Shown: positions 5,221 through 20,000, counted from the first letter of the stretch. The stretch is DNA of 20,000 nt from an uncultured virus (IMG/VR IMGVR_UViG_3300050821_005794) (IMGVR_UViG_3300050821_005794), one strand, 5' to 3'. Translations and numbers: made by a program. Notes: a model not told the origin generated them from the sequence alone.

Positions 5221-8200
5221 CTACGATTCTCCATGGTGCGAGCCATAGACTGTAAACGTAAAAATCTCGTTCCTGACGCCATCTGTAGACCCGAAATCTA
5301 TCTTGACTTGCATGTGCCGCGCCCAAGCAGGCAACGGAACAGCAGGACCGCTGACGCTTTGTTTGAAGTCATAGCGGTTGGAATACAACGTTGCTGGCGC
5401 AAGCGTGGTTCCGTACAAAGCAGGTGGGTCTTGATGAACGTATCCTGAAATACTTTGGAATGGCCCAGAAATTTCGTTGAGCAGCACAGAAAGAACAGGA
5501 CTCGTTCCGACCAAGTTGAAATCACAAGTAATAAATGCCAGTTCGGCTAACTGGCCGGGATAAGCCAAAACGATGCTGCCCATGATGAAGTTGGCCGGAT
5601 AGGTTTTACCGTTGTCCGTAAAAACATTGGCGTTGCGATAGTAAATATACCCGCCGCCTGCTGTGCCTGTATCTGCCGCTGAAGCTTGGTTAGCGTGTGT
5701 AATCGCCGTAGTAAACTGTGTCGGCGTGGCTGATACGATAACTTGGTTAGCTACGTTAAAAATTCCGCTGCCGTTAGTGGTGCCTACGGTAGTAATGATC
5801 TGGCCAACTACGAAGTTATTGTTGGCAGTATAGGTCGCCACATTTGAGGTTAGCGAAGTATTGGTAATAACCGCCGAGCCTGGTCCAACCAAAAGTTGAT
5901 GCACGCCAGGACTAGTTTCGATTGATTGAATAGCCTGCGCACCGCCAGTAATGTTAGCTTTGGGACTCCAAACAAATCCGCCTTCGGGAGCCTGGCTTGT
6001 ATTGCACCTGAACCAACCTGTGCTACCGTCCGAAATGTGAACAGCCTCGTCTTGGTTTGAAGCGTGCCACGTTACGTAAGAATTAGCCGGATTGAAGGAT
6101 TGCAATGTAGGATCGTTCGGATAGGCTGGACACGGTGCGCCAATAGGAAATCCGATTTTAGATATCCCAGAAGTGGGATCAAGCTGTACGAATTGTTTGT
6201 CTGCCGTGTGTGCGTAAATCGTCGTGCCATTCACGTCAGCCGCGAATTGATTGAGCAGTCCAAGATTTTGAATAAACGGTGCAGGATAGAAGACAGTGAT
6301 CCCTGAAACCCCGCTCGCAGCCGCAACCGCCGAACCCGTACCATAAATAATATAAACATCCGAAATCGTAAAAACAAGCAAGCCTACCGAGGTAGGAATT
6401 AACTTGCTGACTTTGGAAGGAAAGACAAAGTTGTTAGCGGGCGACCAGCTTTCGTAAGGATTGCCTAGAATGTTGCCTAAATCGGGGCCAGTAGCGTAAT
6501 AAACAACGTTTGAGACGAAACCCCACATACGCCCCATGTGAAATACCATGCCGCCGATTCCAGTTGGCGGAGGCGTGTTCTGGCCTGCCTGCGCGGGCAA
6601 TTGAAACTGGTTGAGCGTAGCATCCAAGGATTGGTCTACAATCGTGGTTGAAGTATTAGGATAGGGATTCGTAGGCAAGGAATAAAATGTGTTACCGCCG
6701 TCCTTGGTTCGGAAGACCCAGATTGTGTTGACTTGAGGATCGGTACTTGCTACGACGGTTATGTCTACAACCTTGCTAGAAAACGCACCTGTGCTCGCTG
6801 AAGCGGGAGTCATGTTAGAGAAGACTGGCGGCGAGACGTTGGTATTGGCGTAGGCATACCCATATTCATACCCCGTCGTGGCCGAGAGTGCTCCTGAGCC
6901 GCCAACAGAAACAGAAATCCCTGCCGTGAAAACTTGAATTTGAGCCGAGTCTATACTGAAGGTCTGGCCGCTACCGGAAACTACAATCTGAACCCCGAAG
7001 TTACTCGTGTTTATAATAGAAGGATTAAGAGTTGCGCCCCAGACATCCGTGCTGCCACCAAAGGAAATCAGCATGTCTGAAGTGCCAGGCATCAATAATA
7101 ATTTCTGGTTGCCTATGGCGTTACCGTTGTTGTCTTGTAATCGTGCATAAATAAGTGTGTCACCCGCGACCGCTGAAACATGTCCTGTCACGTTAACTTG
7201 AACGCCCGTAACGGTGCCGGAAACGCTGAAGCTATAATTCGTCGCGAACAACGGAGCGGTCTGAAGGTCTGCTGTAGGAATTGTTGTCGCGTACGCCCCA
7301 TCAGGAGCGCCTTGGACATTTGTAGGGTTGGTCCAACTCACGACAACTGGGGATGTGTAGTAGACAGTTACGCTGATATAATCTATGAGAGCTTGTCCGG
7401 TAGCGTGACTCTGAGAAGTGTTGAACTTCGTAGCTACCGCAATACCAAAACCAGAGTTGTTTATATCTGATGGCGCTAGCGTAGCACCCCATAGATCGGA
7501 AGATGATCCCCATGTTTCTGGCGTAATTGACGGAGTATACGCAGTGCCGCCAGTGTGCCCAGTTCCAGATTGAACATTTGCTTTCAGTATTTGAATGGAA
7601 TCTGTAGTTATTGTGCCGCCGGAACCAAGAGACCTGGCCCTATATACATTCGCGACTACCCCCGTAATAGTGGCCGTTGAAGGTATGGCAAACTTAAAAT
7701 TAGTAACATTCAGATAGTTACTACCGTCACTACCTGGACCACCTGTTACGGAAAACGCAGCCGAAGCATAGACCCCATCAAGAACTTCTGCGTTTGTCGG
7801 ATTTGACCAAACTTCGTTGCCATCAGGACCAGATATGCCCGAATCTGTCGCTGAAAATGGAGAACTCGGGCCTTGCGATCCCGAACCGCCTCCGGCTGAC
7901 CCTGAAACGCCCGTTCCGGCGTACGCGCTAGTAAGCGTAATACCTGCCGTAGCAATGCCCCAGTTTCGAAGGGCTACTTGCACGGCTGTGCCTGTATCTG
8001 CCGCTGAACCTACGTTTGCGTGAACTATGGCGACCGTGAATGACGTTGAGTTGGCCGTAGCGATGACAGCATTTGTTACGTTGAAAACACCGCTGCCGTT
8101 TGTTGTGCCTGTTACTGTGACCAAGCGGCCAGCGACAAAGTTGTTAGCCGCAGTATATGTTGCGACGTTGGAAGTCAGGGCGGTGTTGGTTATGATTGCC

Positions 8201-8688: not shown

Positions 8689-9621
8689 TTAGGTTTGCAA
8701 ACTCTGTCGCCCTTGCTGGACCTTGATACCTGTTGCCTGTTGTTCTGCAACCATCGAGAGCCACGCAGCTTGAAAAATGTTGCGCTCCTCGTCCTTAAGG
8801 CCTTCAGCAATTCCCAACAGCGCGGCTACGAATTTCTGACTTGTGGGCATCCAGCGCGGATCATTGAAGTAGGCTAGAATTAATGTGAGGAATCCCCATT
8901 GGTAGACGAAGGAGTAGTGATCTGGAATCGGTGCCCATGTTCCGGCCAAGGTTGAAAACAATGCAGGTTGTTTCTTCTGGTAGATTACGTTAATTTGATA
9001 AACTTGATCGGGTACAGGCAAAACACGGAACGTAATATTTCCGGCGTTGTCATCTACTTGTGGCGCGATATACGCAGGTGCCCCAGATTCGTTGCCGCTA
9101 CCCAAGATGTTTCGCTCAAATGAGACTTCTGAAACTTTGCCGGATAGCGCGGTCCCAGTATCGGCGGCAGAGCCTACGTTGGAATTAACAATTGCAACCG
9201 TGAATTGTGTTGGTGACGCACTAGCAATAACTTGGTTCGTTATGTTGAAGACGCCCGCACCGTTTGTCGTGCCTGTCACAGTAACAGTGTTGCCCGCTAC
9301 GAAGGAATTTGCAGCGGTGTAGGTGGCAACGTTGGAGGTTAGACTTGTATTGGTTATGGTTGCCGCTGGAACATACGAGGCTTTCTCAATGAACCCAAAT
9401 GTAGTGACCGCCGTTGCGTAATCTTGTACTCCAATGGTTGCCAGAAAGGAAACGTTCGCTCGATTCCAGTTCCAACAAAACGGCGGTGACAGAATAGTCT
9501 GTTGGATAATGTTCGCAGATGTGATAGCAGGTTCGTTGCCCGCGCCGATATTTAGGCTTAGGAAATCAACATGTGATTGGCTAAAATTTATACTGTTTTG
9601 CAGAGTAATCGTTGAAGCGAT
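8689..9621 (-). CDS. Head-tail adaptor / tail tubular A-like protein, probable ATC start (310 aa)
   Basis: The frame is open 114 codons upstream of the track's GTG (9279) with no ATG/GTG/TTG. SD GAGGTG (9631-9626) precedes ATC at 9621, giving (M)ASTITLQNSINF...PPFCWNWNR...QDYA. The C-terminus has FRVLPVPDQVYQINVIYQ...PIPDHY. Paralog of 11207..12244. Confidence 0.75.
   Translation of the reverse strand: MASTITLQNSINFSQSHVDFLSLNIGAGNEPAITSANIIQQTILSPPFCWNWNRANVSFLATIGVQDYATAVTTFGFIEKASYVPAATITNTSLTSNVATYTAANSFVAGNTVTVTGTTNGAGVFNITNQVIASASPTQFTVAIVNSNVGSAADTGTALSGKVSEVSFERNILGSGNESGAPAYIAPQVDDNAGNITFRVLPVPDQVYQINVIYQKKQPALFSTLAGTWAPIPDHYSFVYQWGFLTLILAYFNDPRWMPTSQKFVAALLGIAEGLKDEERNIFQAAWLSMVAEQQATGIKVQQGRQSLQT
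9148..9360 (-). repeat. ~70-aa module, third copy, inside the adaptor gene
   Basis: TITNTSLTSNVATYTAANSFVAGNTVTVTGTTNGAGVFNITNQVI...NVGSAADTGTA. Confidence 0.9.
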
Positions 9622-9630
9622 GATACACCT

Positions 9631-10470
9631 CTAAGGTCTTAAGGAAGAAAACATGTCGCAGCAGTCTCGTTCGCCAACTGCGATGGTTCCATCTGACTGA
9701 AGCCTGTCTTGAAGTTTTGGGTCTATTCTAACAACCGGATGCGTGCAACCAAGAAGACCATTAATATCTTTGGCCGCGAACTTGCAATGCCAACACTCGC
9801 GTGGCGGAACATTTTCTTCATCCGTAACAAAGCCCGAAGTTGGCGTGCCGTCTTTAAGCGGAGCCGGAGAGCCTTCGCGTTTGTTTGTTAGGGGAATCAC
9901 TCCTGCCGAAGTGAACATTAGAACGCCACTAGGATAGACTAATCCTTCATACCCGACTTGGCCTTCGGATTTAGAGTTGAATGTGTTGTGTAAAAATGAT
10001 ACGGTTGAGCCGTGGCCAACGATTAGAATAGGTTTGTTCAACTTCTGAACAATTGCAGCCACATCATCAAAGAATTTAGCCTGTCGATTGTCAAACTGGT
10101 TGAGTGATTCGCCGCCAGGAATCTTGAGTGAGCGGTTCTTGATGTACTTGTCTAGGGGATAGTCGGCTTTGGATTTGCCTGTAAAATCTCCAACATTCAG
10201 GGGCCGCAAGCGCTTGTCTACGTGGCTTTCGCGAATGTCTAGAATACTTTGCAAAATTTCGCGAGTTTCTTTTGAGCGGTCTAGATCATCCGAGATAATT
10301 AGCGGGAACTTTATGCCGGTACCTTGCAGGAACAATGCTGATTGGCGGATTCCGTCGCGGCCTTCGGGCGTTAGCTGTGCGTCTGGACCGTTCGACCAGC
10401 TACGATAGGTATTGGCTTGGTTTCCGCCAGTTTTTCCGTGGCGAACTAAAAACATAATTGGGTTTATGAT
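9631..10470 (-). CDS. Histidine phosphatase (phosphoglycerate mutase-like) family protein with a C-terminal Cys-rich domain
   Basis: LVRHG, LTPEG, SDDLDRS, PGGESL and IVGHG motifs; C-terminal ECWHC...GCTHP...DCC. Start is either ATG 10455 or ATC 10470 (after GGGGGT). Confidence 0.85.
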   Translation of the reverse strand: MINPIMFLVRHGKTGGNQANTYRSWSNGPDAQLTPEGRDGIRQSALFLQGTGIKFPLIISDDLDRSKETREILQSILDIRESHVDKRLRPLNVGDFTGKSKADYPLDKYIKNRSLKIPGGESLNQFDNRQAKFFDDVAAIVQKLNKPILIVGHGSTVSFLHNTFNSKSEGQVGYEGLVYPSGVLMFTSAGVIPLTNKREGSPAPLKDGTPTSGFVTDEENVPPRECWHCKFAAKDINGLLGCTHPVVRIDPKLQDRLQSDGTIAVGERDCCDMFSSLRP

Positions 10471-11204
10471 GGCCGACCCCCGATAACGGAGTGTTTGTAG
10501 ATTTTTGAAATGTGGGACAAGAAATAATCTTTGGACCAAATACGCTTCATAAAATTGCACGTATTGCAGCACGGGGCCACATTATCTGTGCGGTATCCTA
10601 TTTCGTTATTGATCCGGTCTACTCCATTGTAGGTAAAAGAACCATTTGATTGGCGGGAATATTCTGTTGATGGCGGGATACCGCAGTAGACGCAACAGCG
10701 AGTGACGATATTGAAAAACTGTTCATCCGATAAATCCCACTCTAAACCACGTTTGGTTGCTTCTCGTTTATAGCGTCCGATTACTCTATTTTTAGCAGCT
10801 ACTCCGAGACCCGCAGTTCGCTGTTCTTTTTGTAAGCATCCGCAACTTCTAGTATTACCAAGAAGATGTGGAAGTGCGACGGTTGTTATATTTCCGCAAT
10901 CGCACTTACAAAGATACATCTGTCCTTTAGTCTTGCTGTAGCCCAGAAAAGCGGTCGCCAATAATCGGCCATTTCTGTAGCCTGACCAATCCTTTTCGGG
11001 GAACTTCTCGCACTTACAACTTTTGACGCAGACATTTCCTTTTCGAATGTTTCCTGGTCGCGCAGTTGTTTCTTCGCCGCAATTTTTACATTTTACAATC
11101 CATGTAGTTAGAAATCCTGTCGGAGTCTTAAAGGGAATTCCTTTTTTGACAACAACGAGATTATCCTTTATAGGATAGTTTTGAAAATTAGGTGTTAAAC
11201 GCAT
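10464..11204 (-). CDS. Free-standing HNH homing endonuclease
   Basis: CKCDCG...SCGCL zinc modules, then CVYCG...YNGVDRINNEIGY...NVAPCCNTCNFMK. Likely ATG at 11204, directly after the upstream stop. Confidence 0.85.
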   Translation of the reverse strand: MRLTPNFQNYPIKDNLVVVKKGIPFKTPTGFLTTWIVKCKNCGEETTARPGNIRKGNVCVKSCKCEKFPEKDWSGYRNGRLLATAFLGYSKTKGQMYLCKCDCGNITTVALPHLLGNTRSCGCLQKEQRTAGLGVAAKNRVIGRYKREATKRGLEWDLSDEQFFNIVTRCCVYCGIPPSTEYSRQSNGSFTYNGVDRINNEIGYRTDNVAPCCNTCNFMKRIWSKDYFLSHISKIYKHSVIGGRPS

Positions 11205-11206
11205 GA

Positions 11207-12244
11207 CTAGAAGATCATCCAAGGGAGCTGGAAAGGCCAAGCGGGGCCAGGGTATAGACCCCCGACGGTAGGTTCTATGACACCTCGGGACGGGTAGAAA
11301 CCGGAATTATCGCGCTCGCGATCACCCTGCATCTTGGCATTCATCAGACTTTCTTTCCACATTCTGTACTGATCCTGAAATTTTCCCCGAACACCTTTGT
11401 CTGTTGAGTGGCTGTACGCCAAAGCTACGAATCCATCCTTGAAATACTTGATGAAATCGTCAGGTATGGGTTCTAGCGTTTGGTTGAACGATGTGAATAG
11501 CCCGTTAGAGAACGCGAATGGTCTGTACTGAGCGAATAAATTAAATTGGTAGACAACTCCTACTTGCGGCGGAATAGGATAGCAGCGAATGCCTTGGCCT
11601 TTGGGGTTGATCGCCGTCCAAATGACTGTTCCGTCTGTTACGGTTGTAGCGACCGTGTTGGGACTGTTCTGTGTGGGATATGCCAATGTTATGGGCCACG
11701 AAGGTTGGCTGCCCCCAGTAATTCCGTACCCTGTAACCGACCAAAAGTTACCATTAGGGTCCTGAATTTGAAGGATAGGATTTGCCGGAGTAACAGTTAC
11801 GCCAATCGGACTCAGAATTTGTACATTCGCGCCGGGCCACACGGAGTACTGAAGCTGATCATTTGGCAGCCACGAGACTTGGCCAGGGATTCCATACTGT
11901 GCCGAAGTCATCATCAAGTCTTTGACAACTTCGATAGGCCAGATAGGTTTGGGCAGGGCCGTATTGTTTATATCTATTAATGCACCGTTCTCTAGCCAGC
12001 CAAGATTGACAACATTTAGAGCGTAGTCTTGCTGCCACGAATTCGTATACACCAGAGGCAATTTGAACCTATTCCACTTCCAGTTGAAAACTTGTGCAAT
12101 AATTTCAGTCATCGTATCATTACAGATACTCAGCACTGGGCCTAGCGTAGCCCCGCCAGCAGGAACTTGCAGAAAGGGCGCAATTTCAGGAAATGACCGC
12201 CCATGAGCAACAATATCTGAAATTTTAACTGTACTATTAGGCAA
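11207..12244 (-). CDS. Head-tail adaptor-like protein, paralog of 8689..9621 (TTG start, ~345 aa)
   Basis: SD AGGGGT then TTG at 12244 (MPNSTVKISD). Shares FNWKWNR...QQDYA...GWLE and IRCYPIPPQ...PIPDDF motifs with the downstream paralog. Has an internal module ending VTDGTVIWTAI. Confidence 0.7.
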   Translation of the reverse strand: MPNSTVKISDIVAHGRSFPEIAPFLQVPAGGATLGPVLSICNDTMTEIIAQVFNWKWNRFKLPLVYTNSWQQDYALNVVNLGWLENGALIDINNTALPKPIWPIEVVKDLMMTSAQYGIPGQVSWLPNDQLQYSVWPGANVQILSPIGVTVTPANPILQIQDPNGNFWSVTGYGITGGSQPSWPITLAYPTQNSPNTVATTVTDGTVIWTAINPKGQGIRCYPIPPQVGVVYQFNLFAQYRPFAFSNGLFTSFNQTLEPIPDDFIKYFKDGFVALAYSHSTDKGVRGKFQDQYRMWKESLMNAKMQGDRERDNSGFYPSRGVIEPTVGGLYPGPAWPFQLPWMIF

Positions 12245-12295: not shown

Positions 12296-12946
12296 ATGGA
12301 AATGTTTACCTGCACCAAATGTAAAATTGAGCAACCAATTACTGAATTCTATAAAGACCCATTAACCAAAAGGGGGCATTCGTCCCATTGTGCTACGTGC
12401 CACCGAGCGAGAGTTAAAAAATGGGCCAAAGACAACCCGAAAAGACATAATGCTAACGGCCAAAACTGGAAGAAAAACAATCCCAGAAAGATAAAAAATT
12501 CTCAATTGGTATATCATTTTGGGATAACTCTCGAAGAGTTCGAAAGACTCAAAACAATACAGGATAACAAATGTGCTATTTGTGGGTTTGAACCACATCT
12601 AAAAGCATTGGCCGTAGACCACGATCATTCTCACCATGAAAACCCAAAAAGAGGGTGCCGAGAATGTGTTCGAGGACTCCTATGCAATGATTGTAATAGG
12701 ATAGTACTTTGGGTTTTAGAAGCGAATCCCAAACTTCAAAGTGATTTTATAATAGCCTACCTAAAACAAAGACCCTTCGCTAGCCGCCCGAATAAAATTA
12801 TCCAGTGCGGTCTCGAAGCCCCAACCCCCATTTCTCCAAAGAGTCATAGTGGGGTACCACAGGCAACTATTCCCGTCCATCCCGAACTTCCAATCAACGG
12901 CACCGCTCAAGAGAACATGAACCTTTTTACCCATGCTAGCGGCTAG
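12296..12946 (+). CDS. Endonuclease VII-family (His-Me finger) nuclease, probably a free-standing homing endonuclease
   Basis: CTKC...CATC N-terminal zinc finger; GITLEEF...QDNKCAIC...LAVDHDH...VRGLLCNDCN core. SD GGAG. Inverted relative to the operon and overlaps the glycosyltransferase 3' end by 186 nt. Confidence 0.85.
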   Translation: MEMFTCTKCKIEQPITEFYKDPLTKRGHSSHCATCHRARVKKWAKDNPKRHNANGQNWKKNNPRKIKNSQLVYHFGITLEEFERLKTIQDNKCAICGFEPHLKALAVDHDHSHHENPKRGCRECVRGLLCNDCNRIVLWVLEANPKLQSDFIIAYLKQRPFASRPNKIIQCGLEAPTPISPKSHSGVPQATIPVHPELPINGTAQENMNLFTHASG

Positions 12947-16073: not shown

Positions 16074-16095
16074 TAGGACTCCATTGTGGTATAAT
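16067..16095 (+). promoter_or_regulatory. Consensus sigma70 promoter for the inverted HNH gene
   Basis: TTGACA (16067-16072), 17 nt, TATAAT (16090-16095) with a TGn extension. Confidence 0.85.
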
Positions 16096-16116
16096 ACTCT
16101 ACTATTGAGGCTTACG

Positions 16117-16743
16117 ATGGCTAAGAAACGCGGTAAATGCAAAGATATGAGTGGTGAGCGCCACAACCGCTTACTTATTTTATGGCGGTGGTATGATCCT
16201 ACTAGCAAACGAGCTAGATGGTTGTGTCTGTGTGATTGTGATAACTATATTGTTGCGACAGGCAAAGATGTTCGCCAAAGAAAAGTTCAGAGTTGTGGTT
16301 GTCTGCGAAGTGAAATGTCTGCCGAAAGAGCTAAAAAGAACTCGGTTCTGAATACATTACCAGCAGGAGAAATGGCTTTCAACCAACTTTTCACAAACTA
16401 TAAATTTCATGCTGGCAAAAGAGACCTACCATTTGTGCTGTCGCGAGAGGAATTCAAAATTCTTACGAAAGGGGACTGTTTTTATTGTGGGGCGGCCCCA
16501 TCTCAATGGTATCATCGCGGCCACAAAAGCGGTTCGTACATTTACAATGGTATAGACAGGTTAATAAATTCCGAAGGATATTATCTAAATAACTGCGTTC
16601 CTTGTTGCGGTGTTTGTAATGATATGAAAAGAACACGTTCGGAATCGGGCTTCATAAAAGCATGTCAAGCTGTCGTAGAACATCAGAAGAGGAGAGCCGA
16701 AGAATTGTTCCGACTCTCCCTCCCTAAAATTGCTACTGCTTAA
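16117..16743 (+). CDS. Free-standing HNH homing endonuclease, convergent with the capsid gene
   Basis: SD GAGG then ATG 16117. CLCDCD...SCGCL and CFYCG...YNGIDRL...NCVPCCGVCNDMK motifs. Its stop overlaps the capsid stop (TTAA 16740-16743). Same architecture as 10464..11204. Confidence 0.85.
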   Translation: MAKKRGKCKDMSGERHNRLLILWRWYDPTSKRARWLCLCDCDNYIVATGKDVRQRKVQSCGCLRSEMSAERAKKNSVLNTLPAGEMAFNQLFTNYKFHAGKRDLPFVLSREEFKILTKGDCFYCGAAPSQWYHRGHKSGSYIYNGIDRLINSEGYYLNNCVPCCGVCNDMKRTRSESGFIKACQAVVEHQKRRAEELFRLSLPKIATA

Positions 16744-16760
16744 CTGACTGCGCTTGTTGC
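16740..16760 (-). CDS. Major capsid protein, last exon (ATSAVS*)
   Basis: Follows terminal G 16761 and joins in frame to ...LRYID. Confidence 0.75.
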   Translation of the reverse strand, partial: ATSAVS

Positions 16761-16977
16761 CAGAAGTGTTACCGCGTACGCGGGTTAGATCATTTCTGTC
16801 TAACTCTTACAGTTACGTTTCCTGTAAGCTCGGACTATCGCATCACCCCCGAAGGGTGCCCTCTCGCTTAGTCTCTCAGGCTACGATTTCTCGCTTGCCC
16901 CTTGTCGGCATTGCAGCTTCCAAGTCAATTAGAGTGGGTTGTCATTTCCGCATTTCGGCGGAACGAGACTGAAATCA
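16761..16977 (-). ncRNA. Group I intron E in the capsid gene, ORF-less, 217 nt
   Basis: P1 GAU|UG...CAGUC with U.G at the splice site; P3 CCCACUC/GAGAGGG; P7 GAGACUA/UAGUCC; UUCG-capped P8; P9 hairpins; ends in G. Confidence 0.88.
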
Positions 16978-17097
16978 ATCAATATAGCGCAAACGTTGGG
17001 TTGTATCGGGTGGTAAACTAGCAGTGAAGTGAACACGGTAGCTAGTCCAGCCGGGTATCAAACCAGACGGATCGGCTACGCTTAAGGGTGCATTTTG
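16978..17097 (-). CDS. Major capsid protein exon (40 codons)
   Basis: QNAPLSVADPSGLIPGWTSYRVHFTASLPPDTTQRLRYID; the DP...GW motif matches the C-terminus of N4-gp56-like capsids. Confidence 0.85.
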
Positions 17098-17312
17098 CCG
17101 GAATTGTTACCGCTTTCGCGGGATCAGTCATTTCTGCTGATCTCTCATAGTTGTGTTCCCATGAGAGCAGACTATCGCATCATCCCGAAGGATGTTCTCT
17201 CGCTTAGTCGTTCACGGTGCTTTCGCTTCCGCCTTGTTTGCATTTCAGCATCCAAGTCAATTAGAGAGAATTATCTACTGACGGATTACGCCATCAGGAG
17301 TCCATTTAATTG
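17098..17312 (-). ncRNA. Group I intron D in the capsid gene, ORF-less, 215 nt
   Basis: P1 AGUU|CA...UGGACU; P3 UUCUCUC/GAGAGAA; P7 ACGACUA/UAGUCU; UUCG-capped P8; ends in G. Clearly homologous to intron E. Confidence 0.9.
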
Positions 17313-17557
17313 AACTACGTTGCACTCTATGTTCCTCCAGTTACCGTCATTAATCGCGTTGTCACCACGTCCGCCAAGGCGAACTGCAATGACACCGTCT
17401 TTACCGAAAATATAAGTCCGGTACGCGACCACGCCAGACGAACTCTGATACGAAGAAGTCAACGTAACAAGGTTCGACTGGAAGAAAGCCACGCCCGACG
17501 CGGGGAATTCAAGTGTGTCGGCCAGGTCGATAGAAACGAGGTCGTCCATACGTTGTA
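17313..17557 (-). CDS. Major capsid protein exon (245 nt)
   Basis: (L)QRMDDLVSID...GVAFFQSN...YRTYIFGKDG...IECNVV; corresponds to track ORF 17286..17549. Confidence 0.88.
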
Positions 17558-18532
17558 CAATTGTATTTTAAGATGCCGCCATCTCTGACGGCTCGCTCTC
17601 ACGGTTGCCCGCGAGTTTAGACTGTATCATCTTTACTGAAGAGATTTGAAGAGTTTAGCCCGTTTTTCGTTGTTGTGTTCCCCGCTCATTCGTAAAAATT
17701 GGAGAACAACATTAGCATTATGCTTTTTGATTACCAAATACGGAAGCATGTTCAAGATAAACTTCTCTTGATTCGGTGCCCCATAGATAGCCCAATCATA
17801 TTGTTTTTTGTGTATCTCACTTCGTTTGCGGGGATAAATTGATCCTCCGTAAATAGATTTAAGATACCGAATGATCGGTTCAAAGGTGTTGGTGGCGCTT
17901 ACTTCTACGACGTAATGGTTGCCCCACTTCTCATCGCGGCACTTAATTGTGAATGTGCCTTCTGCGTCTGCCAAACCAGCATAATAGGCGTTAACTAAAT
18001 TCTGTTTTTCAGGAAAGTTTAGCGTTTCAGTCGTTACGGAGTCTTTGTGATTCGCACTGTAGCAACGAGTATACAATTCAAATCTCTTTTCGGGATTCTT
18101 TTTGCCGTTTAGGGCATAGTATTCCCGAAAGATTTTGGCTTGCTCTCTTTTTTGCTGCAAATACGGAATAATTAAGGACAGAACCCAATCTGAATGCTTG
18201 GCACCTTGCGGCGACCAAACATAGCTAGTTTTGTGTTCATCCGTAGCATCTCTGCCAATCGACCACGACCCCCCGAAATGCTTAACTAGCCACTTCATTA
18301 TGGGTAGATACGTGTTATAAATATGGAAGTCTGCTACGTACTGGCTGCATCCATTGCTATCCTCGCCGTGGCGGATATAAAGACTTCCGTCGCCGTCAAT
18401 AAGACCTGCAATGTACGCTTTAGTTTTATCCTTCACTAAGATTTCCTCGGTATTGTCTTCTATCATTAGATGCTTCCTACTGTAGAAGGGTTTCACCGAT
18501 ATAGCTAAATTTATTCAGGGCTACTTTTGTTA
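17558..18532 (-). mobile_element. Group I intron C (975 nt) with a double-motif LAGLIDADG ORF
   Basis: P1 CAGGGU|...GCCCUG; P10 GUA/UAC; P3 UUUAGC/GCUAAA; P4 UAUCGGUGAA/AAUACCGAG; P7 ACGACUG/CAGUCU; ends CAAUUG. Confidence 0.9.
17633..18436 (-). CDS. Intron-encoded LAGLIDADG homing endonuclease, two motifs (~267 aa)
   Basis: YIAGLIDGDG and YYAGLADAEG motifs, each followed by a PYL..K motif. Probable GTG start at 18436 after GAGGA. Confidence 0.92.
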   Translation of the reverse strand: MKDKTKAYIAGLIDGDGSLYIRHGEDSNGCSQYVADFHIYNTYLPIMKWLVKHFGGSWSIGRDATDEHKTSYVWSPQGAKHSDWVLSLIIPYLQQKREQAKIFREYYALNGKKNPEKRFELYTRCYSANHKDSVTTETLNFPEKQNLVNAYYAGLADAEGTFTIKCRDEKWGNHYVVEVSATNTFEPIIRYLKSIYGGSIYPRKRSEIHKKQYDWAIYGAPNQEKFILNMLPYLVIKKHNANVVLQFLRMSGEHNNEKRAKLFKSLQ

Positions 18533-18611
18533 ACCCTGGTACAGTGTGTTTTAAGATATCTACCGCAGAGTTATTGCTAGAATCGTTAAGCAAATCGCCA
18601 ACGGTGAAAGG
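18533..18611 (-). CDS. Major capsid protein exon (79 nt)
   Basis: PFTVGDLLNDSSNNSAVDILKHTVPG plus 1 nt; completes the GVIH|P motif. Confidence 0.88.
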
Positions 18612-19319
18612 TAATTGTGTTTGTAGTCCCGATTTAGATAGGCGCGACCAAATTATGGGTTGTGTTAGTTAAATCGTCACAGATCGTTGCTGTGCCCCGA
18701 TTCACATCGGGGGCGCTCTCGTCCTTGCGGGCGAGTTCAGACTCTATCTTCTGTTCATTTTGTGAACAGTCTAGCGTATTAGTCGTTACGGAGTCTCCAC
18801 GTTTATTGAGGCTGGATAAACGAAGTCTGAGTTCTTCTCGTTTTTCAGGATTAGTTCGCTCCCCGTACATAGAGATGCGAATATATTCCAAGAGGATTTT
18901 CGCCTGTTCATCTTTAATAACGAGATACGGCAGAACCCCAAGAAGTACTTTTTCCAGATTCTTCGCTCCCTTGGGCCGCCAATCATATTCTACTTTGTGG
19001 ACTGTGGACCTTCGGGATTTTGTATAGTAAACACCGCCAAAATTCTTAATGAGCCACTTCATCAACTTTTCGTTTGTATTATAAACGCTGAGTCTGTGAT
19101 TCATCATCCAGTAATCCGTATTCAAATACTTACGGGTTTTCTGTAATCGGCGGTAAATACTAATACAACCTTCACCATCAATAAGGGCGGCCAGATACGA
19201 CCATTTTGTTTTATCGTTTGTCATTTGGAGTTTCCTCGGTATTGCCTTTCAACTTAGATGCTAACTTGGTTGAAAGGGTTTCACCGATTTAGTTAGATTT
19301 TACATCCACCATTTCATTA
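18612..19319 (-). mobile_element. Group I intron B (708 nt) with a single-motif LAGLIDADG ORF; terminal nucleotide A
   Basis: P1 CAUCCAU|...GUGGAUG; P10 UGAAAUG/CCUUUCA; P4 AUCGGUGAA/AAUACCGAG; R CCGUAACGACUAAU; S AAGAUAGAGUCUGA; ends CACAAUUA. Confidence 0.88.
18634..19224 (-). CDS. Intron-encoded LAGLIDADG homing endonuclease, single motif (196 aa)
   Basis: YLAALIDGEG, KNFGG and LPYLVIK motifs; SD GAGGA. The C-terminal ~55 aa are encoded by the ribozyme core and P9 region. Confidence 0.92.
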   Translation of the reverse strand: MTNDKTKWSYLAALIDGEGCISIYRRLQKTRKYLNTDYWMMNHRLSVYNTNEKLMKWLIKNFGGVYYTKSRRSTVHKVEYDWRPKGAKNLEKVLLGVLPYLVIKDEQAKILLEYIRISMYGERTNPEKREELRLRLSSLNKRGDSVTTNTLDCSQNEQKIESELARKDESAPDVNRGTATICDDLTNTTHNLVAPI

Positions 19320-19557
19320 ATGGATGACTCCGGCCATTAAACTTTCTGCCTCGTTGAAGGGCAGCACTGCTCGGCCACCGAGTGATTGAACTTGTGCGCG
19401 AATATTGGATAGCGCCAAGGACGTGCCGCCAGCAATCTTTACGGAAACCGCACTGTCGATGCTGTTAGCACCATCAGCTACGGCTCGTACGATTGCGGAC
19501 AGGGTTTGTCCAAGACGATAACTAAGTTCGCGGCCAACGTTCTCTACAACTGGATCA
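19320..19557 (-). CDS. Major capsid protein exon (238 nt), N4-gp56-like
   Basis: Manual translation DPVVENVGRELSYRLGQTLSAIVRAVADG...MAGVIH. The DP.....L......T pattern and IHP motif recall N4-gp56-family capsids. Confidence 0.85.
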
Positions 19558-20000
19558 CATATTTGTTTTGGATTTCCGCATCACTGCGGGATCGCTCTTA
19601 TGGTCACCCATAAGGTTCAGTCTCTATCTTTATTTCTTGAATTGACTAAGTTGATGAGCAATCTCACATCTTCCTTCGGGCATTGCAATGAGCCCCAAGC
19701 GGACAAAAGAGAGAAGTAACTTTGCTTGTTCTTTTTTCGCAATCAGATAAGGTACCATCTTCAGGAGAAATCTTTCAATAGGTTTATTTGTGGAAAGCGA
19801 CCAAGTATGTTCCCACTTTCTGTCTTTGCTGCGCAAAAAGGAAACAAGGCCGCCACCGTAAGTTTTCTGCATAATCTTCGGTATTCTTTTGACCGAATTT
19901 CCTGCCGAAATTCGCGGCTTATACCACACTCCCGAACCTCTCGAATATTCTGATTGCTTAGTCTCATATATTCCCAAACTACCTTCGCCATCAAAGAAAC
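19558..20000 (-). mobile_element. Group I intron A, 3' part (5' end outside the window)
   Basis: S-like AAGAUAGAGACUGA directly after the ORF stop; P9 CUUAUGG-GUGA-CCAUAAG; CCGCA-GUGA-UGCGG; ends AAAUAUG before the exon. Confidence 0.85.
19630..20000 (-). CDS. Intron-encoded LAGLIDADG endonuclease, C-terminal part
   Basis: The frame is open to the window edge and reads (G)FFDGEGSLGIY...; contains YGG and VPYLIAKKEQA motifs. Confidence 0.9.
   Translation of the reverse strand, partial: FFDGEGSLGIYETKQSEYSRGSGVWYKPRISAGNSVKRIPKIMQKTYGGGLVSFLRSKDRKWEHTWSLSTNKPIERFLLKMVPYLIAKKEQAKLLLSFVRLGLIAMPEGRCEIAHQLSQFKK

Follow-up and report, generated by a model that had tools for sequence, protein, structure and literature searches.

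Five probable group I introns of two families in the major capsid gene of an uncultured soil phage

A stretch of 20,000 nucleotides (nt) from an uncultured virus (IMG/VR IMGVR_UViG_3300050821_005794), referred to here as the window, carries on its minus strand most of a major capsid gene that is very probably interrupted by five group I introns belonging to two sequence families. The exons join in frame and are colinear with the uninterrupted genes of relatives, the RNA structure of the introns is conserved, and ligation of the exons flanking introns 1, 4 and 5 is found in environmental RNA, as predicted. Introns 2 and 3 presumably splice as well. The most abundant protein of the virion would then depend on five RNA-splicing events within a coding sequence (CDS) of 1 kb.

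The split gene and its uninterrupted relatives

Another IMG/VR record, G001, shares 10,641 identical nt with the reverse complement of the window and extends 5.9 kb past the window's end. Taken together, both records give a gene of six exons (317, 238, 79, 245, 120 and 21 nt) and introns of 1202, 708, 975, 215 and 217 nt, with a spliced product of 339 amino acids (aa). Exon 1, which has an ATG start with AGGAAG 5′ of it, and the remainder of intron 1 lie beyond the window's end (would-be window positions 20001-21076, minus strand). The original prediction, a model's reading of the window alone, had claimed at least five introns and perhaps more outside the window; since G001 holds exon 1 and the rest of intron 1, the number becomes exactly five. 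Within the window, and on the same strand, the order is the last 443 nt of intron 1 (19558..20000; the whole intron is 5104-6305 in L003, the locus numbering used for G001), exon 2 (19320..19557), intron 2 (18612..19319), exon 3 (18533..18611), intron 3 (17558..18532), exon 4 (17313..17557), intron 4 (17098..17312), exon 5 (16978..17097), intron 5 (16761..16977) and exon 6 (16740..16760), which consists of six codons plus TAA and matches the C-terminus of the homologues. The first base of exon 2 completes an isoleucine codon that starts in exon 1, and its being a third codon position accounts for the apparent mismatch at 19557. The five exon pieces in the window had been placed exactly, and their translations gave the peptides quoted with them; they total 703 nt, and recomputing the in-frame join yielded the same 233 aa and stop codon.

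When the exon peptides were compared with GenBank phages by tblastn, they matched Tunturiibacter phage Tunturi_3, a podovirus of ~98 kb that infects an acidobacterium (PMC11924767; the available portion of this description mentions no introns). In this phage an uninterrupted gene encodes the annotated major head protein (343 aa). A tblastn comparison of this protein with G001 produced the colinear segments 2-105, 106-189, 190-216, 216-298 and 298-337, whose ends are the exon junctions; the last six residues of the protein match exon 6, and no junction gains or loses residues. The alignment with intron-less relatives was equally colinear and free of gaps at the junctions in seven relatives that share ~90% protein identity. 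Four of them have complete genes that are continuous across all five junctions, and the remaining three are continuous across each junction that they reach.

Single exon peptides matched no family in PHROGs or Pfam because the pieces are too short, and a full-length intron-less relative, L090 (91% identical), was substituted for them, so that the results on family and fold are those of L090 standing in for the joined product itself. L090 matches phrog_1357 "major head protein" (E 9e-17); it had no match in Pfam, and a phmmer search of PDB sequences gave a marginal match only (E 0.06). A first AlphaFold model of this type of protein, made from a shallow alignment of 22 close relatives, had a predicted local distance difference test (pLDDT) value of 28.9 and was discarded. 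With an alignment of 62 sequences taken from 784 protein-library matches, the L090 model reached a pLDDT of 85.3 and a predicted template modeling (pTM) score of 0.79. Foldseek returned 314 matches to this model at E ≤ 0.001, the best of which was the capsid of phage N4 (9e99_A, E 1e-12, template modeling (TM) score 0.62); other top matches were the capsids of the Shigella phages Moo19 and B2 (E 1e-12 to 1e-11, TM ~0.6). The capsid identity claimed in the original prediction is borne out by the colinearity with a major head protein, by the family and fold matches of L090 and by a portal gene that lies upstream. In our interpretation, the split gene is the sole major capsid gene, HK97-fold and N4-like, of an uncultured soil phage related to Tunturi_3.

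Intron structure, splicing and alternative explanations

The insertions in the capsid genes of relatives form two sequence families, class A and class B. Class B insertions are ~170-240 nt long, have no open reading frame (ORF) and include introns 4 and 5 of the window. RNAalifold analysis of 22 distinct class B introns, introns 4 and 5 included (alignment A1), gave a P3 helix that encloses P4, P5 and P6, followed by P8, P9 and P9.1, with compensatory changes in 32 of the 39 pairs. When the P7 pseudoknot was added, 99.2% of 964 cells were paired and 32 of 44 pairs had double changes; the pseudoknot itself, GACUA/UAGUC around P8, is invariant in 22 of 22 introns. None of 500 shuffles reached any of five measures, and sliding the partners by 1-3 columns left 29-40% pairing. 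Class A insertions, which include introns 1-3, start with UAA. The MAFFT alignment of their 5′ halves was too ragged for pair counts and the helices were read by eye; from copy to copy, compensatory changes occur in P3, P4 and P8, with P3 variants such as CUAGAC/GUCUAG, UUUAGC/GCUAAA and UUUGAC/GUCAAA. In the class A 3′ domain (P9 and P9.1), which covaries in intron 3 too, 13 of 16 pairs are compensatory (nine introns).

At the 5′ junctions of the window, U at position -1 stands opposite G in all five introns, with P1 helices of 7, 7, 6, 4 and 3 base pairs (bp) for introns 1 to 5; P10 has 4 bp in intron 1 and 3 bp in intron 3. Over 23 tabulated introns (the junction table omits L102 site q207, score 2, and the last exon pair of L140, which gave no result), cognate P1 helices have a mean of 6.0 bp versus 3.2 for 498 non-cognate pairings, and cognate P10 helices a mean of 3.1 bp versus 0.85. 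The group I features that had been described, with U.G in P1, are thus present together with covarying cores and P10. Introns 1, 3, 4 and 5 have a terminal G. When 50,697 phage records were searched by blastn, intron 4 had a single weak match, of metagenomic origin, and an ORF-less class A intron had none.

Parts of the gene were found in eight sequencing runs, and three soil metatranscriptome runs (X6, X7 and X8) and one DNA run (X3) were compared. In RNA contig X6 record 10, L003 position 5103 is joined to 6306, which is the exact removal of intron 1, and the contig continues in exon 2 (6306-6466). RNA contig X7 record 15 has the joints 8550|8766 and 8885|9103; introns 4 and 5 are both gone from one molecule, which includes exons 4, 5 and 6 (exon 4 is also found in X6 record 12). 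The two joined contigs have zero mismatches, with 100% identity over 259 and 266 nt. No joints occur in the DNA run, which is continuous over both boundaries of intron 1, with exon 1 and with exon 2. No contig of the three RNA runs is 99% identical to the interiors of introns 1, 3, 4 and 5; the interior of intron 2 is the only one covered there at 100% identity (X8 record 19). This RNA evidence consists of assembled contigs of depth 3-5 from three runs, which establish that joined forms exist and are silent on splicing efficiency.

Several results weigh against the interpretation of all five insertions as spliced group I introns. A search of the whole window with the Rfam model RF00028 at its gathering score of 50 gave 0 matches. 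With E-value reporting, full-length matches on the right strand lie inside introns 1-4 (E 0.0019-0.97), at 24.8 bits for intron 4 (E 0.0019), 23.2 for intron 2 (E 0.006), 21.5 for intron 1 and 15.8 for intron 3, the best being 24.8 against the required 50. Intron 5 had no match to RF00028 even below the threshold, and its P1 has 3 exon bp only. It was because of these scores that the structure was tested independently through the relatives; the covariance model proposed as a check fell short of its threshold, at 15.8-24.8 bits, while the group I topology covaries. In the only colinear reading, with H|PF as the protein junction, intron 2 ends in UUA followed by CCU and lacks the terminal G, a detail in which it departs from the original description. 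The exon 2-3 and exon 3-4 junctions are covered by no RNA contig in the three runs; the exon ligation looked for in RNA is present for three of the five introns (1, 4 and 5). The X8 record 19 contig (L003 7082-7324, window 18781-18539), which comes from an RNA library, is unspliced and runs from the core of intron 2 into exon 3; this single contig is compatible with a slow second splicing step of intron 2. Finally, RNA libraries can contain DNA, and an intron-less DNA variant with identical exons could be the source of the joints.

Three other explanations address these points. One is that the insertions act at the DNA level, as free-standing endonuclease cassettes or inteins, with the capsid made from separate fragments or by protein splicing. 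The LAGLIDADG ORFs carried by three of them, which are also found in inteins, and the sub-threshold Rfam scores would suit it. However, each insertion opens with in-frame stops or soon meets them, the exons switch frame, two insertions have no ORF whatsoever, RNA contigs lack introns 1, 4 and 5, and a covarying RNA structure is conserved; the probability left to this explanation is negligible. Inteins, group II introns and assembly chimeras had been rejected as candidates because of the in-frame stops and frame changes, the lack of a reverse transcriptase, the group I topology and the 10.6 kb of identity to an independent IMG/VR record. Another explanation takes the gene for a decaying pseudogene in a defective or satellite-dependent genome, where some introns, at least intron 2, no longer splice. 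All exons are intact, with ~90% protein identity to intron-less relatives and no frameshift or stop, and two independent soil metatranscriptomes contain transcripts of the phage from which three other introns have been spliced out. What speaks for decay is intron 2 itself, with its terminal A, its unspliced contig reaching into exon 3 and an exon 2-3 junction that was not seen in the RNA runs. Yet five other introns, located at three sites and between intact exons, likewise end in A with C as the next base, and a sea anemone has a natural group I intron with a terminal A that undergoes splicing in vivo (PMC8146996). We consider a pseudogene highly unlikely.

The remaining explanation, which we regard as slightly less likely still, is that the joined contigs derive from contaminating DNA of a sister strain that lacks the introns and has identical exons. 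DNA may be present in RNA libraries, and contigs can show neither strand nor level. But among 149 loci the nearest intron-less relatives give no blastn match to the spliced CDS above the 80% filter, whereas the contigs are identical to it over their 259 and 266 nt; the DNA run that was compared has the introns and no joints; and the interiors of introns 1, 3, 4 and 5, which DNA contamination would be expected to bring with it, lack cover at 99% identity in the RNA runs. If the capsid gene is interrupted by five group I introns, as we favor, the late transcript must lose all of them to give the 339-aa coat protein. In P1, the last bases of the upstream exon, ending in U opposite G, would pair with the internal guide sequence, and in P10 the first bases of the downstream exon would pair with the adjoining guide bases. 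Each intron is expected to fold a P3-P9 core with a guanosine pocket in P7 and should self-splice by two transesterifications.

Terminal A, intron distribution and endonuclease genes

The best alternative junction for intron 2 with U at -1 and a terminal G adds 6 aa and scores 16 lower. A terminal A followed by exon C is found in six of the 23 tabulated introns (last intron base at window 18612, L086:8224, L117:8181, L130:8548, L146:1581 and L098:7545); these are spread over three insertion sites, and both intron families are represented. The introns of L086 and L117 occupy the site of intron 2; the case of L117 (site q185) is ambiguous, since the colinear junction that scores highest there combines A at -1 with a terminal G, and the reading with U and a terminal A scores slightly lower. 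At site q210 the terminal A occurs in L130 and L140, where the nearest intron-less relative differs at two residues of the 52-aa junction window and not at all at the junction. Site q105-107 has it in L146 (class A) and L098 (class B). The exons flanking the terminal-A introns elsewhere are likewise intact. Class A introns keep a constant 72-75 nt between P7 and their last base whether they end in G or in A, and the terminal A therefore occupies the homologous position. Next to the terminal-A junctions, P10 has 3-5 bp in five of six cases and the P7 G-C pair is unaltered.

We propose tentatively, as an idea that falls a little short of probable, that the introns with a terminal A always followed by exon C (intron 2, two introns at the same site and those at two further sites, from both families) are still spliced and represent recurrent, selected non-canonical 3′ sites, and that ORF-less introns have colonized at least 11 sites of one capsid gene, possibly aided by the HNH endonuclease gene described below. 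If true, the terminal A might block hydrolysis at the 3′ site and circularization, or tie capsid production to an intron-encoded maturase. The recurrence of the terminal A and the spread of ORF-less introns over many sites beside an HNH gene are sub-observations worth a bench test.

From each of two scans of IMG/VR, which gave 263 and 289 related loci, the best 80 were retained, and many related loci carry insertions within the same capsid gene. Introns were counted from alignment gaps and core motifs in 96 distinct capsid genes that include the N-terminus, and the counts are lower bounds: 73 genes have no intron, 15 have one, 5 have two, 2 have three and one, the window's own record, has five, the top count in this sample. 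When counted by hand, three introns are present in at least four genes. The insertion sites, in the numbering of the window protein, are ~22, 52, 91, 105, 185, 207-212, 261, 267-272, 292, 313, 316, 325-329 and 333-337. The relatives are a natural series of 0, 1, 2, 3 and 5 introns, with at least 11 sites and two intron families. Because of this series and of a cultured relative, Tunturi_3 on Tunturiibacter, the spread of the introns, their cost to late expression and the tolerance of a terminal A are open to experiment.

Class B cores were also seen several kb upstream of the capsid gene in relatives (L018:1948-2130, L128:26-202 and L140:2001-2176), and the class B family therefore resides outside the capsid gene as well. 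Motif searches for further class A or class B introns gave no matches elsewhere in the window, and the motif TAATTAC has one occurrence in the window, which is not above chance. The protein library contains many proteins of 60-130 aa (P0028, P0029, P0031, P0060, P0062 and others) that match exon-sized parts of the capsid only, for example profile positions 101-189, 212-303 or 2-90. Their appearance is that of gene calls on pieces of intron-split genes, with truncation at contig ends as the alternative.

Introns 1-3 encode LAGLIDADG proteins with double, single and double motifs, respectively. The C-terminal 122 aa of the intron 1 protein are encoded in the window (19630..20000, minus strand; full frame L003 5271-6233) and match phrog_5046 (E 4.8e-13); the score of 19.5 bits with PF00961 is under the cut-off of 23.1 because the piece is partial. 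The intron 2 ORF (18634..19224, minus strand, 196 aa) scores 24.1 bits with PF00961 and matches phrog_5046 with E 6e-22, and the intron 3 ORF (17633..18496, minus strand, 287 aa) scores 42.3 bits and matches phrog_5046 in two stretches (E 1.6e-38). All three ORFs start after P6, in its loop, and continue through the P7/P3′ core; the last ~55 codons of the intron 2 ORF overlap the P7-P9 ribozyme core, and the ORFs of introns 1 and 3 extend into P8. Where the LAGLIDADG frames traverse the core (window 18634-18800 and 17990-18040, minus strand), it encodes a common peptide motif, DSVTT, and in introns 1 and 3 the second LAGLIDADG domain appears to lie within the P8 loop; coding and catalytic RNA sequences therefore overlap. 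Intron 2 has a 66-nt insertion (window 18613-18680, minus strand) between P9.1 and the conserved tail, absent from the other nine class A introns, which encodes the C-terminal end of its ORF. The endonucleases of introns 1-3 would presumably cut intron-less capsid alleles of co-infecting relatives, after which the intron could be copied in. Introns 4 and 5 probably spread by co-conversion with neighboring introns or with the help of an HNH gene.

A free-standing HNH endonuclease gene (16084..16743, plus strand; phrog_374 E 1.9e-14, phrog_1035 E 5.5e-14) is convergent with the capsid gene and abuts or overlaps its stop codon. In a set of 58 distinct loci with sufficient downstream sequence, an HNH-like gene lies at most 1.8 kb downstream of 8 of the 15 genes with a class B intron versus 3 of the 43 without (Fisher's exact p = 0.0004, uncorrected for relatedness). 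The HNH gene is a possible helper in the spread of the ORF-less introns, a lead and not a demonstration. Two further free-standing endonuclease genes, HNH-like and endonuclease VII-like, are located at 10464-11240 (minus strand) and 12296-12946 (plus strand) among structural genes that match Tunturi_3 gp12 (window 11231-12244) and gp13 (8911-9618); no intron core motifs were found near these two endonuclease genes. On the 5′ side of the capsid gene are a portal gene, a DNA methyltransferase gene in the opposite orientation and a 305-aa ORF.

Comparison with known systems

Multiple self-splicing introns in one gene and ORF-less introns next to endonuclease genes both have precedents. Landthaler and Shub, in 1999, reportedly described three group I introns in one gene of the cultured Staphylococcus phage Twort, with splicing in vitro; the likeness is that of several self-splicing group I introns in a single phage gene, three there versus five here. 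Collaborative homing involves the ORF-less psbA intron of cyanophage S-PM2 and the free-standing endonuclease F-CphI. In both S-PM2 and the present phage an ORF-less group I intron adjoins a free-standing endonuclease gene, here with a statistical co-occurrence of HNH genes and class B introns only.

The original prediction took for granted that phage group I introns lie mostly in DNA-metabolism genes, usually with one to three per gene. This premise is outdated, as introns in capsid genes and a case of ~18 introns per genome have been published (PMC3706429, PMC7886860, PMC12880540). In mycobacteriophage LittleE a likely group I intron is located in the major capsid gene, with splicing demonstrated at the RNA level (Pope et al. 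2013, PMC3706429), and the introduction of the same paper refers to a capsid-gene intron in the lactococcal phage Tuc2009. LittleE resembles the present case in the U that closes exon 1, in an intron with a terminal G and a LAGLIDADG-like ORF, and in a related ORF-less copy within another structural gene. It differs in having a single intron, whose ORF runs on the opposite strand, studied by reverse transcription PCR in culture; the present gene has five introns, their ORFs lie on the same strand, and the RNA evidence consists of environmental contigs only.

Closer in its number of interruptions is OLRF01000054, a member of the crAss-like Zeta group, whose capsid gene is in five fragments with intron-type domains in three of the four gaps (Yutin et al. 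2021, PMC7886860). Both are major capsid genes split by group I-type insertions, several of them with endonuclease domains, and both come from comparative genomics of metagenomes. Five fragments and four insertions in OLRF01000054 compare with six exons and five introns here, and it belongs to gut phages of Bacteroidota, whereas the present phage is a soil relative of a phage of Acidobacteriota. The present analysis adds the exact junctions, the RNA structures, ligation at the RNA level for three introns and two introns that have no ORF. The Jug jumbo phages of the gut, whose genomes span 360-400 kb, have ~18 small (~206 nt) group I introns per genome, and their splicing was confirmed by metatranscriptomes (PMC12880540). 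They share with the present phage the splitting of essential genes, such as terL and nrdD, by group I introns and the confirmation by metatranscriptome reads. Their genes are in two to three fragments each, unlike the five introns in one CDS of 1 kb described here, in a phage of probably ~95-100 kb to judge from its relatives. For the terminal A, the counterpart is the sea-anemone mitochondrial group I intron ND5-717, which naturally ends in A instead of the "universal" G, as intron 2 does, and is spliced precisely in vivo; its authors suggested that the terminal A prevents hydrolysis at the 3′ site and circularization (PMC8146996). ND5-717 is organellar, vertically inherited and obligatory, whereas the introns described here are mobile phage introns of two families, with a terminal A at three sites and predicted splicing.

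No phage gene with five introns was found among the papers that searches on phage group I and capsid-gene introns listed; the supplementary tables of the cited papers may hold some. Ordinary gene callers will fragment such a gene. Introns in capsid genes, and the splitting of phage capsid genes by several introns, are already known, and with five introns, one more than in the published crAss-like example, the present gene is an extreme case of a known phenomenon.

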